NCBI GenBank assembly: GCA_965276655.1
Contig: CBDIBD010000002.1
Location: 277,923-341,922 of the forward strand
Direction: 5' to 3'
Source: Acetobacteraceae bacterium
GTDB lineage: Bacteria; Pseudomonadota; Alphaproteobacteria; Acetobacterales; Acetobacteraceae
Length of the DNA stretch: 64,000 nt
The notes beneath the pieces were generated by a model, which had not been told where the DNA came from, searched no databases, and worked only from the letters and a program-made list of their open reading frames with translations. Position numbers and translations under genes: made by a program. Position 1 is the first letter of the stretch; each line of letters opens with the position of its first letter. Positions 9,540 through 63,686 of the stretch are shown here, one piece after another.

Positions 9540-11543
9540 ATGTTCGGAAAGCTCACCCTCTCGGCGATCCCCTACGATCAGCCGATCCCGATGGCCGCGT
9601 CCAGCCTGGTCGTCGTGGGCCTCGTCGGGATCCCGATCCTGGTCCTGGTCAAGGGCTGGCTGCCTTATCTGTGGCGCGAATGGATCACCAGCGTCGACCA
9701 CAAGCGGATCGGCGTGATGTACACGCTGCTCGCACTCGTGATGCTGATGCGCGGCTTCACCGACGCGATCATGATGCGCTCGCAGCAGGCGCTCGCCTTC
9801 CGCTCGCAGGGCTACCTGCCCCCCGAGCACTACGACCAGGTCTTCTCGGCGCACGGCACGCTGATGATCTTCTTCGTCGCCATGCCGTTCGTGATCGGCC
9901 TGATGAACTTCGTCGTGCCGCTGCAGTTGGGCGCGCGCGACGTGGCCTTTCCCACGCTCAATTCGGTCAGCTTCTGGCTGACCGCGACCGGCGCGCTGCT
10001 GGTCAACCTCTCGCTGGTCGTGGGCGAGTTCGCGCGCACCGGCTGGCTGCCGTATCCGCCGCTGTCGGAGCTCGCCTATTCGCCCGGCGTGGGCGTCGAC
10101 TATTATCTTTGGGCGCTGCAGATTTCCGGCGTCGGCACGCTGCTGACCGGCGTGAATTTCGTCACCACCATCCTCAAGATCCATGCGCCCGGCATGACCT
10201 ACATGCGCATGCCGATGTTCTGCTGGACGTCGCTGGCGTCGAACCTGCTGATCGTCGCCGCCTTCCCGATCCTGACCGCCACGCTCGCGATGCTGCTGCT
10301 CGACCGCTATCTCGGTTTTCATTTCTTCACCAACGATCATGGCGGCAACGTCATGATGTTCATGAACCTGATCTGGGCCTGGGGACATCCGGAGGTCTAC
10401 ATCCTGATCCTGCCCGCGTTCGGCGTGTTCTCCGAGGTGGTCTCGACCTTCTCGCAGAAGCCGCTGTTCGGCTACCGGTCGATGGTGCTGGCGACGATGG
10501 CGATCTGCGTGTTGTCGTTCATGGTCTGGCTGCACCATTTCTTCACCATGGGCGCAGGCGCCGACGTCAACGCGGTGTTCGGCATCGTGACGATGATCAT
10601 CGCGGTGCCCACCGGCGTGAAGGTGTTCAACTGGCTGTTCACCATGTTCGGCGGCCGCGTCACCTTCTCCGTGCCGATGCTGTGGTCGCTCGGCTTCATG
10701 GTTACCTTCGTCATCGGCGGCATGACCGGCGTGCTGCTCGCCGTGCCGCCGGCGGACTTCGTCCTGCACAACAGCCTGTTCCTGGTGGCCCACTTCCACA
10801 ACGTCATCATCGGCGGCGTGCTGTTCGGCGGGTTCGCCGGCTACAACTACTGGTTTCCGAAGGCGTTCGGCTTCCGGCTGCACGAGGGGCTCGGGAAGGC
10901 GGCGTTCTGGTGCTGGCTGAGCGGTTTCTATCTCGCCTTCATGCCGCTGTACGTGCTGGGCTTCCTCGGCATGACGCGCCGCATGCAGCACTACGACAAC
11001 CCCGCCTGGCGGCCATGGCTGCTGATCGCGGCGGCAGGGGCCGCCGTGATCGCGGCCGGCATCGTGCTGATGGTCGTCCAGCTCGTGGTCAGCATACGCC
11101 GCCGCGAGCAGCTTCGCGACGAGACCGGCGATCCCTGGAACGGGCGCTCGCTCGAATGGGCGGTGCCCTCGCCGCCGCCGTCGTTCAACTTCGCCGTGCT
11201 GCCCGACGTGCGCGGCGCCGAAGCCTACTGGAGCATCAAGCAGCGCGCGCACCAGCATGCCCGGCTCGGGCCGGAACCCGACTACGAGCCGATCGAGATG
11301 CCGCGCAACAGCCCGACCGGCTTCGTCTGCGCGTTCTTCGCGACCCTGATGGGCTTCGCGCTGATTTGGCACATCTGGTGGATGGTGGCAGCCGGCGCGC
11401 TCGGCGCGTTCGTGACGTTCGTCGCCTTCGCATGGCGCGACGACGGCAAATACACGATCCCGGCCGACACTGTCGCGCGCATCGACCGCGCCAACCGGCG
11501 GATCCGGATGACCGCGCTGGCCCATGAGGAGGCGGCGCAATGA
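9540..11543 (+). CDS. cyoB: Cytochrome o ubiquinol oxidase subunit I
   Basis: Heme-copper oxidase subunit I signature ([24 protein letters not shown]). Starts [15 protein letters not shown], as in CyoB. Confidence 0.95.
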
Positions 11544-61434: not shown

Positions 61435-61461
61435 ACCCCGGGCGCGTCGGCGCAGGCAAGA

Positions 61462-61494
61462 CCGGGGGCCGAGGCCGGCCCCCGGACCCCCGGC
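61462..61494. repeat. GC-rich hairpin repeat (family member f)
   Basis: 10-bp stem ccgggggccg/cggcccccgg with a 4-nt loop, followed by ACCCCCGGC. The same suffix is seen at 30909-30917. Confidence 0.55.
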
Positions 61495-61655
61495 TGCCAT
61501 CCGATCCTGGCCAAGCCGACCGCGAGTATCGGAGTCCGCTCTGTCTGGAGGCTCGCCGCGGTGCTACCGCTCCCGCCGGCGGTTGGCTCCTGCTGGATGC
61601 AGGCGATGGCGCAATCGGCTATGTCCCTGTCGAAAGTGACGAAGGAAGATGCTTG

Positions 61656-62291
61656 ATGCCGCCCCCTATGCTCGAACATCGCTGGTTGCGACAGGATGCC
61701 GTGGCCCTCCAACTCCGGGAGGCTGGTGGCAATGCCGCCTTGTTCGACTCTGTTCCCGAACCGGAACGGGCAATCAAGTGTCTCGTCGGGCTGTGCTTCT
61801 ACAGATTCGATTCCCAGGTCGGACAGGAGATAAAGAAGAATCTACAGTTCTACTCATCAAAGCCGGGCCATATCGCCATCGCCGTCTGGTTCCTCGGCCT
61901 CATGAAGGCAATAGAAGATAGTCCACAGGACTTTCCGTTTTGTCTATCGGAGAAGGAGTTTACCTATTATTCCGAACAGAACTTTGGTGGCCAGATCAAA
62001 GACATCGAGGAGTTGTATCATCCCCCTTCGTATTATCAGGCTTTGCTCCAAGATATTTTTGGGTCTTTCATCATAATTGCCGTTGGCGCTGCCGCAGCCG
62101 TATCTTTTCCTGAAGCGGCTGCTGGGGCTGCCCTTACCGAGGCCGTTGCTCCCGGAGTTCTCAGAGCCGTGGTCGGAAGTGTCGCCAGCGGTATCACAGC
62201 CCGCTTTCTACCCGGCGGATCATGGGAGGCTCAGAGAAAAAGTAACTTATGGCCAAGATATCAAGCCGATGCGGAAAGACGAAGGCTATGA
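61656..62291 (+). CDS. Hypothetical membrane-associated protein (211 aa) with an Ala/Gly-rich hydrophobic C-terminal region
   Basis: ATG at 61656 with a GAAGGAAG RBS. It is the tail of a long track ORF that runs out of aqpZ in another frame. G+C drops sharply after about 61790. Hydrophobic segments HIAIAVWFLGLM and IFGSFIIIAVGAAAAVSF...GVLRAVVGSVASGI. No family recognised. Confidence 0.5.
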   Translation: MPPPMLEHRWLRQDAVALQLREAGGNAALFDSVPEPERAIKCLVGLCFYRFDSQVGQEIKKNLQFYSSKPGHIAIAVWFLGLMKAIEDSPQDFPFCLSEKEFTYYSEQNFGGQIKDIEELYHPPSYYQALLQDIFGSFIIIAVGAAAAVSFPEAAAGAALTEAVAPGVLRAVVGSVASGITARFLPGGSWEAQRKSNLWPRYQADAERRRL

Positions 62292-62700
62292 TACCTCCGA
62301 TTAGAGCGTACATATATGAAAAAAGACAAGTGATCGTACTGATATGCATCTCTTTGGTTATCTGTTACCTGCATTTTGGAAGAGATATATTTGGTTTTTT
62401 GGGTATGATTCTTGTGTTCTTAGTTTGCTGGAGCTCTTATCCGCATTTTCAGGAAAGAAGTGGTGTCTACTACACTAGCAGGATCTCGCTTCGTATTATT
62501 ATGGTTATGTGTGTCATTGGAACTTTTGTTGGAATTGTACTACAGTTTATGAAGTACTCCAATTTATAAAATCATGAATAGTGACACGGACACTGGAAGG
62601 GTATTCTTGTACTCACGGGAGGTCGGCCTCAATAAGCACTAATGCTCATCTTGGAACACAATCTGGCGATCAGAGAATGGTCAGTCATACAATTGCCTTG
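61790..62700. other. Low-GC segment, probably foreign DNA
   Basis: Hand counts of 60-nt lines give about 43% G+C at 61921 and about 32% at 62341, against a roughly 70% background. No mobility gene was seen. Confidence 0.6.
62288..62569 (+). CDS. Hypothetical small 3-TM membrane protein (93 aa)
   Basis: The ATG at 62288 overlaps the upstream stop (ATGA). Very AT-rich: a hand count of the 60-nt line at 62341 gives about 32% G+C. Three hydrophobic helices. Confidence 0.5.
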   Translation: MIPPIRAYIYEKRQVIVLICISLVICYLHFGRDIFGFLGMILVFLVCWSSYPHFQERSGVYYTSRISLRIIMVMCVIGTFVGIVLQFMKYSNL

Positions 62701-63452
62701 GTTTTCTCGCCCGTGACGCCAGCATCGGCGGCGCGTCCCGCTCCAATCGGCGGCTGGCTTGGCCGTGCAACGCCCGCCATCCAATGCATTGTGACGATCG
62801 GGCTGATCACAGCCGCCGCGACGGCCGCAAAGGATGTGCTCGGTCCGCCTGCCTGCTGCTGATACGCGCCAAGCGCCGCGTCATCAACCGCCTCGGCTTC
62901 GCAGCCGAGCTCTGCTTGCTTGATCATCCCGGGTAGGCGCTCGGGACTCGGCCAGCAGACATCCACTTCATGCGAGTGCCCTGACTCTTTGCGCGATGTT
63001 AACGGCGCCACACGTGAGCTGAACGCATGCGCCTCCGTCGCACCGTCTCGGTCCGCCGCCAGCAAGCGCCGGACTCAGAAACGCGGAGGACACGCGGCCG
63101 CGGATGGTCACGCATCATTGACGTGGCCGCCAGCCCGCCGAGCACCGCGAGGCCGACATCTTCATGCCGTCCCGCTGACATCCAGATCGCCAATCGTATC
63201 GTAAGAATTGAGTGTCGCCACAGCAGACCAACAGGTCATCCTTAATGGTCAGCGTCGGCAACGCAAAGTATCCCTGAGCGCTTGAGGCACCTTCCAAACA
63301 ATAAGTTCGAGTCCATTGACTTGAGTTTATTCGCAATTCTTCTTCAGCTTTGCCGTGTTCTCCTCTAACGTTATTGTTAACCTTGTTCCCGACGCATCGT
63401 TATGCTTTATGATGCGAGCGCATTGGGCGCTATCCTCAAAAAGGGACCGATC

Positions 63453-63686
63453 ATGATCAGCCGCTCGCGACGTTTCGTTTCACAAGGTTCCGGTCTTGCG
63501 CTCACCGCGGCCATTGCCGTTTCGCTGACCGGCCACGCTCGTCACGACGTGGCGATGACACTTGGCGTGCAGTCATCCTCCGCCACGAGTGCACCGGGCA
63601 GCCTGTCGGGCCTGCGGCATGACCGGTCCGCGCATCTCGCGACCGATATCAGCTACAGTCCTGGGCTTTTTCACTCCTATCCCTGA
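63453..63686 (+). CDS. Hypothetical small protein with a signal-peptide-like N-terminus
   Basis: MISRSRRFVSQGSGLALTAAIAVSLTGHA. AAGGGA lies 6 nt upstream. Weak call in decayed-looking DNA. Confidence 0.2.
   Translation: MISRSRRFVSQGSGLALTAAIAVSLTGHARHDVAMTLGVQSSSATSAPGSLSGLRHDRSAHLATDISYSPGLFHSYP

Follow-up and report, generated by a model that had tools for sequence, protein, structure and literature searches.

A horizontally acquired, translationally coupled gene pair beside aqpZ in an Acetobacteraceae genome as a candidate membrane toxin and immunity module

This study concerns two overlapping genes, here called ORF1 and ORF2 (open reading frames 1 and 2), in a 64,000-nucleotide stretch of an Acetobacteraceae bacterium (GenBank assembly GCA_965276655.1, contig CBDIBD010000002.1, positions 277,923 to 341,922 of the forward strand), which is referred to as the window and whose first letter is position 1. 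ORF1 (61656-62291) encodes 211 amino acids and is discussed below as a putative membrane-inserting toxin, and ORF2 (62288-62569) encodes a protein of 93 amino acids with three hydrophobic helices, its putative cognate immunity (antidote) membrane protein. The start codon of ORF2 and the TGA stop codon of ORF1 (62289-62291) overlap in the tetranucleotide ATGA (62288-62291), which makes for translational coupling. Upstream lies aqpZ (60676/60691-61434), a gene of a MIP-family aquaporin with two NPA motifs in its translation, which belongs to the native flank and marks the left side of the insertion. It is followed by the leader of the cassette (61444-61655), which contains a perfect 10-bp hairpin (arms 61462-61471 and 61476-61485) and, near its end and before the ATG of ORF1, the Shine-Dalgarno sequence GAAGGAAG. 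All of these features are on the forward strand. The initial annotation, made from the nucleotide sequence of the window, had described the same arrangement of aqpZ, a hairpin repeat and a two-ORF pair with an ATGA junction, and in this it was correct. The orthologous locus, L003, is found in a related Acetobacteraceae metagenome-assembled genome (MAG), OZ255622.1, with cob genes, a sulfotransferase gene, a MIP gene (PF00230), the cassette and a GGDEF gene; aqpZ of the window is 95-98% identical to it at the nucleotide level. An alternative in-frame ATG of ORF2 upstream at 62249 would give a protein of 106 amino acids, but the start of the 93-residue form is the conserved one, because the L003 orthologue begins with GTG at the same position and the NTGA overlap is present at all other loci.

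The pair is set apart from its surroundings by its base composition. The G+C content is 0.693 over the whole window and 0.669 in aqpZ, as opposed to 0.536 in ORF1 and 0.358 in ORF2, and the G+C content at third codon positions is 0.39 in ORF2 and 0.90 in aqpZ. The minimum over all 64 kb, measured in 282-nt windows, starts at 62299 with a value of 0.348, about 6.8 standard deviations under the mean. Only two stretches drop under 0.50, namely 61736-62798 and 63141-63508, the second of which immediately precedes the beginning of the GGDEF-family gene and is 75-90% conserved with L003. The G+C content of 32-43% given in the initial annotation applies to ORF2 and to windows within 62200-62700 but not to ORF1, for which 45-57% was obtained, and the break placed inside ORF1 near 61790 was found again as a step from 0.575 to 0.47.

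This break had led to the suggestion that the first 45 or so codons of ORF1 are native DNA fused to the gene by the insertion and that translation starts at an internal ATG near 61902. Our comparison refutes the first suggestion and speaks against the second. The N-terminal motifs RWLxxDAVxLQLxE, PEP/PDP and VGLCxYR are kept at unrelated loci and in other genera, and codons 1-60 of ORF1 show a ratio of non-synonymous to synonymous substitution rates (dN/dS) of 0.13 relative to the 64%-identical copy at locus L001 in OZ255622.1. ORF1 shares with L001 both its Shine-Dalgarno sequence and its start context (GCTTGATGCCGCCC), and the last 85 or so nucleotides of the leader are similar to the sequence that precedes the L001 copy (67% over 86 nt, E 5.6e-6). 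The internal G+C profile of ORF1, with 0.63 in codons 1-45, 0.48 in codons 46-125 and 0.54 in codons 126-211, also recurs in L001, so that the elevated values in its 5' and Ala/Gly-rich parts reflect amino-acid composition and not a junction. There is no conservation of the methionine encoded near 61902 among family members. Elsewhere, however, there are variants that are truncated at the N-terminus or split and begin immediately ahead of the YPFCL motif, namely the unrelated P0002, P0018 and P0023.

The family of ORF1 is small. An exhaustive hidden Markov model (HMM) search of 1.84 billion representatives yielded 29 cluster representatives, 22 of them below an E value of 1e-10, and an indexed word search with the family profile returned at least five proteins. 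Every member is labelled "hypothetical protein" in the named sources. The full-length members comprise 203-222 amino acids. The family is carried by Acetobacteraceae MAGs, Acetobacter thailandicus (WP_212382976.1), Nitrospirillum amazonense (WP_326487114.1 and WP_145748670.1), N. iridis and N. bahiense, and one Stellaceae MAG. The protein encoded by ORF1 has a mass of 23 kDa, lacks a signal peptide and can be divided into three parts. A helical domain, in which the motifs YPFCLSEKEF and YHPPSYY occur, takes up residues 1-125; in the family alignment, this part is represented by the conserved N-terminal helical region (RWLxDDAVxLQLxE, PDP/PEP, VGLCxYR) and the central motifs YPFCLSExEF, FGG and YHPPSFY. 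Residues 126-187 (62031-62216, forward strand) constitute a Gly/Ala-rich hydrophobic part, presumed to provide membrane-inserting helices, with one strongly hydrophobic stretch at about residues 128-157 (Kyte-Doolittle maximum 2.09) and ten overlapping small-xxx-small-xxx-small motifs; in the alignment, it appears as a variable region some 55 residues long, in which one proline (Pro152 in ORF1) is near-invariant. The protein ends in a basic helix (residues 188-211) with the family pattern LPGGSWDAxxKxxLWPRYxxDxxRRxL, in which W199 is conserved and Y202, R208 and R209 are invariant.

An AlphaFold2 (AF2) model of ORF1 calculated from 3 sequences reached a predicted local distance difference test score (pLDDT) of 52, and the model from an alignment of 23 sequences a pLDDT of 80, with values above 90 at residues 10-125 and 190-211. 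A Foldseek search of the Protein Data Bank (PDB) with this model gave a best E value of 3.4 and TM-scores below 0.25, BFVD was likewise without a match, and a sequence-profile search of the PDB had its best hit at an E value of about 0.65; judging from the predicted model, the fold is apparently new. Neither ORF1 nor ORF2 has a significant match in Pfam, NCBIfam, PADLOC or PHROGs, and nothing consistent was obtained in these libraries for 23 relatives of ORF1 or 13 partners. In PADLOC-DB 2.0 (5,027 models), ORF1 matched nothing, ORF2 matched only ZorA2 (E 0.021, over a transmembrane stretch), and the 23 relatives produced no recurrent match. No homologue was detected by tblastn in plasmids (with ORF1 and P0007) or in phages (with ORF1), no match was found in 50,697 phage genomes and 2.9 million viral contigs, and scans of metagenome contigs gave no confirmed relative. 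The earlier statement that neither protein belongs to a recognisable family is thus borne out, the curated libraries being empty and the confident ORF1 model being without a fold match in the PDB or BFVD.

DNA of 17 distinct loci was recovered, namely the window, L001-L005, L007-L014, L017, L019/20 and L021, and at all 17 the TGA stop codon of the ORF1 homologue overlaps the start (NTGA) of a gene for a hydrophobic partner of 62-149 amino acids, which answers the question raised beforehand of whether the pair is conserved across genomes. The overlap is ATGA at 12, GTGA at two and TTGA at one of the 15 loci compared in this respect, and the same four-nucleotide overlap is present at L019/20 and L021. 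ORF2 contains hydrophobic segments at about residues 12-35, 33-52 and 63-91, in agreement with the three transmembrane (TM) helices assigned to it earlier, and all 14 complete partners compared have the same layout, with two hydrophobic segments in the N-terminal part and one in the C-terminal part. A word-indexed search with ORF2 detected no homologue. Its relatives were located by their position beside ORF1 homologues and then confirmed pairwise, with E values of 2.5e-5 for the window and L008, 3e-15 for L008 and L021, 3.6e-7 for L008 and L007, 7e-7 for L008 and L014, 2e-19 for L014 and L017, and 1e-9 for L014 and L009; since these matches are significant, ORF2 does have homologues, and the partners form one homologous family. 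They diverge rapidly, with a mean pairwise identity of 21%, compared with 30% in the N-terminal domain, 28.5% in the hydrophobic region and 44% in the C-terminal tail of ORF1. For the L001 copy, whose ORF1 is 64% identical to that of the window, the identity of the partner is as low as 12-16%. A fast-evolving partner is what is usually seen in immunity proteins that recognise a variable intramembrane segment. No third gene is conserved beside the pair, and the neighbouring genes differ without relation from locus to locus. At L012, the partner is followed, with a one-base overlap, by a second small ORF (79 amino acids, 1263-1502), and at L014 the gene after the partner (1303-1791) has a sub-threshold match to HEPN_RiboL-PSP (E 1.7e-4), so that some copies may sit in small clusters of conflict genes.

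ORF1 and ORF2 are genuine genes under purifying selection. Relative to the L003 orthologue, ORF2 has a dN/dS of 0.13 and 44 substitutions, none of which introduces a stop, and no indel, and segments of ORF1 have values of 0.06-0.12. The synonymous divergence (dS) between the window and L003 is 0.40-0.67 in the cassette (61656-62569 against L003 10001-10792) and 0.17 in the adjacent aqpZ, that is, three to four times higher in the cassette; possible reasons are a weaker codon bias, a faster evolution of AT-rich DNA, or allelic replacement by recombination.

The two genes decay unequally. The ORF1 homologue has been broken independently at six of the 17 loci, by in-frame stops at L002 and L008, by frameshifts at L005, L007 and L019/20, and at L003 by an 84-nt in-frame deletion together with a 38-nt frameshifting deletion. 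Several of these lesions are substitutions or multi-nucleotide deletions and hence not homopolymer sequencing errors. Of these six loci, only L019/20 has a shortened partner, of 62 amino acids; at the other five the partner is open. In every one of the six cases, the first lesion lies within the first 85 or so of about 211 codons, for which a uniform distribution along ORF1 would give a probability of (85/211)^6, or about 0.004. It is plausible that translation of the partner needs ribosomes at the NTGA, so that only early lesions combined with re-initiation keep it expressed. Together with the short forms P0002, P0018 and P0023, the early lesions point to a possible domain boundary near residue 85 and to selection for keeping the 3' part translated. 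P0030 (138 amino acids, on a contig of 29.9 kb) is a natural in-frame fusion of about 73 N-terminal residues of ORF1 with the membrane part of a partner, the entire core of ORF1 being deleted; its residues 4-79 are 55% identical to the ORF1 homologue of L009, and its partner part shows 37% identity (E 9e-7).

The genomic sites of the pair are diverse. The 4.34-Mb chromosome OZ255622.1 carries four diverged copies (L001/L006, L003, L007 and L008), whose ORF1 homologues are 48-95% identical to that of the window, with ORF1 disrupted in three and the partner open in all four. The L001 copy is placed between convergent Aldedh and GNAT genes, the L007 copy just upstream of bamA in the frr-uppS...bamA-lpxD-fabZ region, and the L008 copy next to a resistance-nodulation-division (RND) pump. 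Elsewhere, the copies L009-11 lie between an amidohydrolase gene and aspS, the L005 copy 3' of sucD, and the L002 copy beside a tRNA-Arg gene. The Nitrospirillum copy L017 is part of an integrative and conjugative element (ICE) with relaxase, TraF, ParA, RPA, HTH_17, DUF736 and ParB, and the L013 copy belongs to an island that also contains Prim-Pol, Imm-NTF2-2 and a neighbour with weak likeness to an integrase. From its foreign composition, its mobility and its multi-copy state, the two-gene cassette is horizontally acquired.

At two loci, the cassette of 1.2-1.3 kb is flanked by imperfect direct repeats that derive from the 3' ends of neighbouring host genes. In L001, the repeats are about 190 bp long with 80-83% identity (9774-9956 and 10952-11147) and comprise the end of Aldedh, a hairpin and the end of GNAT; in L003, the repeats (9807-9851 and 11086-11130) are 45 nt of the aqpZ end with 91% identity, 1279 bp apart, and the aqpZ-end repeat stops at the equivalent of about 61443 in the window. 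There is no recombinase gene inside the cassette, and the repeats suggest that it integrates at the 3' ends of genes, through either an integrase that acts in trans or a Campbell-type crossover. A single blastn block aligns 61757-62741 of the window with L003 10018-10962 at 82% identity, and a 69-nt stretch of the leader (61513-61581) is deleted in L003. The block includes the 3' tail of the cassette (62570-62741, forward strand), which is conserved with L003. An Rfam search gave no family, scans for promoters and terminators remained at background level, with no Rfam match and no terminator above background in the 3' tail, and no tRNA gene was found in the 64-kb window. The right-hand repeat of the aqpZ end is missing in the window, where its place is occupied by a GC-rich (0.67) segment of 437 nt (62742-63178, no strand assigned) that is absent from the collinear L003 and may be a transposon scar. 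It includes a 50-residue ORF (62784-62936) with RRVINRLGFAAELCLLDHPG, of which 62856-62933 has a sub-threshold match (E 0.006) to DUF4158, the N-terminus of Tn3-family transposases; tblastn of this possible Tn3 remnant against plasmids returned nothing.

A possible connection to a type VI secretion system (T6SS) is provided by locus L004, at which a full-length hcp gene (PF05638, E 3.7e-34, 118 bits) precedes the ORF1 homologue P0021 with 15 nt between the two, and P0021 is followed in turn by an overlapping gene for a partner of 113 amino acids. P0021 is a bona fide member of the family (E 8.5e-15 with the initial three-sequence profile). The order of hcp, effector and immunity gene is the classical layout of Hcp-dependent cargo effectors, and in mass the ORF1 protein is comparable to the small Hcp-dependent effectors already known. 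Delivery by Hcp and the T6SS is likely for at least the L004 subfamily; for the copy in the window, we regard the same route as doubtful. A literature search for T6SSs in Nitrospirillum or Acetobacteraceae yielded nothing useful.

Taken together, we consider it moderately probable that the pair encodes a membrane-inserting toxin and a translationally coupled immunity protein. The signal-less, all-helical ORF1 protein would insert its Gly/Ala-rich helices (about residues 126-187) into the cytoplasmic membrane and would then dissipate the membrane potential by way of a pore or ion channel. ORF2, as a predicted three-helix inner-membrane protein, would be made only when ribosomes finish ORF1, owing to the ATGA coupling, and would neutralise ORF1 within the membrane. 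The module would most likely serve interbacterial competition, and the copy in the window would be an "orphan" effector-immunity pair. The hydrophobic partner downstream at every locus, whose membrane location is predicted from hydropathy, agrees with the cognate immunity gene expected downstream of an effector. The toxin/immunity architecture proposed in the initial annotation also gains from the conserved coupling of a foreign pair, the fast evolution of the partner, the decay of ORF1 with the partner kept, the hcp-linked relative and the copies in an ICE and an island. A more far-reaching proposal, which we consider rather unlikely when taken as a whole, is that of a fold-novel family of Hcp-borne T6SS pore-forming effectors with intramembrane immunity, limited to Rhodospirillales/Acetobacterales, carried by a recombinase-less mini-element of 1.2-1.3 kb that spreads by itself and lands at the 3' ends of core genes with a target duplication of 45-190 bp, and with effector lesions in the first 85 or so codons that spare the NTGA-coupled immunity gene.

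Several observations weigh against a secreted membrane toxin. The tblastn search for Hcp, with the L004 Hcp and Hcp1 of Pseudomonas aeruginosa as queries against the window and all loci, detected no Hcp-like sequence in the window or within 10 kb of any copy but L004, and T6SS Pfam families were found among the neighbours at L004 alone, so that one of 17 loci lies beside a T6SS gene. Intracellular toxin-antitoxin modules would be expected just as much to keep the antidote once the toxin has been lost. The C-terminal third of ORF1 had been described as glycine-zipper-like; this holds for the family, in which 15 of 23 members carry the strict motif, (G/A/S)xxxGxxxG or GxxxGxxx(G/S/T/A) in a slightly relaxed version, but that motif is absent from the copy in the window. 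The AF2 model is poorly defined precisely in the hydrophobic region (pLDDT only 41-69), and Foldseek against the PDB revealed no fold likeness to colicins or to pore formers of the ClyA or Bcl-2 type. Finally, the hydrophobic stretch and the basic C-terminal tail would also fit a resident inner-membrane hairpin protein of the producer.

The main rival possibility, which we judge unlikely, is that the pair is an intracellular toxin-antitoxin (TA) or abortive-infection (Abi)/addiction module, in which ORF1 would be a latent depolariser in the membrane of the producer that is checked by ORF2 and fires upon loss of ORF2, as with plasmid or ICE loss, or upon phage infection. Such a module would account for the ICE cargo copy beside replication and partition genes and near a DUF433/PIN TA pair, for the tight stoichiometric coupling by the ATGA, for the 16 of 17 loci without secretion genes nearby and for the decay of the toxin with retention of the antidote; the absence of a signal peptide and an N-in/C-in hairpin formed by the hydrophobic segment and the basic tail would suit it as well, and one weak HEPN neighbour and one weak integrase-like neighbour can be added. 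However, no family member matches any of the PADLOC models, nothing was found in the phage, viral-contig or plasmid collections, and the hcp-homologue-partner operon of L004 has no place in such a model. The order with the toxin first and the membrane-embedded antidote second is atypical of classical type II TA systems, as a large protein precedes a membrane protein and neither contains a helix-turn-helix, a ribbon-helix-helix or a known toxin domain. Moreover, the four copies in OZ255622.1, at core intergenic sites and three with a broken ORF1, look more like an accumulating immunity repertoire. The earlier idea of a toxin/immunity or Abi module is partly supported.

Less probable still, and in our view quite improbable, is a non-toxic accessory membrane complex with a stress, transport or envelope role that travels on mobile DNA. 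Both proteins are membrane-like and under purifying selection, neither has homology or a fold match to any toxin, and the well-folded, conserved 125-residue domain and the C-terminal helix of ORF1 could be a cytoplasmic functional domain. Nevertheless, the patchy and sparse distribution (29 clusters among 1.84 billion representatives), the repeated ORF1 lesions with the partner spared, the very fast divergence of the partner, the several paralogous copies per genome, the hcp-linked relative and the ICE and island contexts are typical of conflict systems and not of accessory physiology. A holin/antiholin-like lysis cassette left by a prophage is suggested by the size and three-helix layout of ORF2, which are like those of class I holins, by one partner with a sub-threshold match to Phage_holin_3_7 (E 0.054) and by the charged, basic C-terminal tail of ORF1; it is very improbable, given that there is no PHROG match, no endolysin or other phage gene at the 17 loci and no match in the phage genomes and viral contigs, and that the C-terminus of ORF2 is uncharged. 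As for non-genic ORFs that arose by chance in AT-rich junk, few stop-free frames come about by chance when such DNA lies in a GC-rich genome, yet ORF2 is without a word-search match. The dN/dS values of 0.06-0.13, the 44 ORF2 substitutions without stop or indel, the homologues of both genes in other genera with the same overlap and the confident AF2 model of ORF1 leave this explanation with practically no probability, and it was rejected as refuted by the selection values, the cross-genus homologues and the conserved overlap.

If ORF1 is indeed a membrane toxin, it would represent a new family with an apparently new fold that joins the few known interbacterial effectors that are small and form pores (Tse4, Ssp6, VasX), and Acetobacteraceae and Nitrospirillum, which are important in plant-associated and fermentation communities, would have their first family of this sort. 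With about 30 clusters the family is compact, and some of its carriers are in culture (Nitrospirillum amazonense, N. iridis and Acetobacter thailandicus), so that toxicity, immunity and delivery can be tested directly. The strict NTGA coupling and the confinement of toxin lesions to the 5' part would offer a natural experiment on how effector-immunity pairs become orphan immunity genes, and the long presumed target duplications that surround a 1.2-kb cassette without a recombinase pose the question of how such minimal cargo moves.

Among the known systems, Ssp6-Sip6 of Serratia marcescens comprises an Hcp-dependent, ion-selective pore-forming T6SS effector and its immunity protein, the latter being a small protein with TM helices whose gene overlaps ssp6 by four nucleotides (PMC6889166). 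The ssp6-sip6 genes occupy scattered, strain-variable locations, sometimes beside an orphan hcp, and "silent" second copies can be present in the same genome (PMC6889166). ORF1 and ORF2 resemble this system in consisting of a small, signal-less protein without a recognisable domain and a downstream gene, overlapping by four nucleotides, for a small protein with TM helices, as well as in their scattered sites. They differ in that Sip6 has 67 amino acids and two TM helices, as opposed to the 93 amino acids and three hydrophobic segments of ORF2, and in that the homologues of Ssp6 (SMDB11_4673) are enterobacterial, whereas the ORF1 family is alphaproteobacterial. In this comparison, which is one of gene architecture and not of sequences, the pair appears closest to Ssp6 and Sip6. 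Tse4-Tsi4 of Pseudomonas aeruginosa is reportedly composed of a small, Hcp1-carried, membrane-depolarising effector with helices of the glycine-zipper type and a cognate immunity protein, encoded away from the main T6SS cluster. Hydrophobic zipper-like helices, a putative immunity partner and a location outside a T6SS cluster are shared features, but ORF1 has an additional, confidently folded N-terminal domain of 125 residues and, in the window copy, no strict glycine zipper, and no homology to Tse4 was detected through Pfam, PADLOC or NCBIfam.

In the pore-forming colicins of the E1 type, the toxin domain is helical, comprises about 200 residues and has an Ala/Gly-rich hydrophobic hairpin near the C-terminus; the immunity proteins are small three-helix inner-membrane proteins that recognise this hairpin and neutralise the toxin within the membrane. 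A helical protein with an Ala/Gly-rich hydrophobic part and a small three-helix partner are found here too, but receptor and translocation domains and a lysis gene are lacking, the putative immunity gene is co-directional and overlapping instead of opposed, and a basic conserved helix follows the hydrophobic region of ORF1. In searches for the colicin pore domain, there was no Pfam match, no PDB-profile match below an E value of 0.6 and no colicin among the Foldseek matches. The Caulobacter system CdzC/CdzD-CdzI is said to consist of contact-dependent glycine-zipper bacteriocins and a small inner-membrane immunity protein and to need an adjacent type I secretion system. Like it, the pair combines an alphaproteobacterial hydrophobic protein of the zipper type with a small membrane partner, but no genes of an ATP-binding cassette (ABC) or membrane fusion protein (MFP) exporter are conserved at the 17 loci, and ORF1 is larger, with a folded N-terminal domain. 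TspA, EsxX and TelE are reported to be glycine-zipper depolarising toxins of the type VII secretion system (T7SS) with polytopic membrane immunity (PMC12744356, PMC10434224). They share with the pair a zipper-like hydrophobic region at the C-terminus and a gene for a small polytopic protein, putatively of immunity in the pair, just downstream. However, they are LXG-domain substrates of the Gram-positive T7SSb, whereas ORF1 is without an LXG domain and occurs in Gram-negative Alphaproteobacteria. From these comparisons, ORF1 and ORF2 would be best described as a new, unnamed family that follows known toxin-immunity pairs in logic and architecture.

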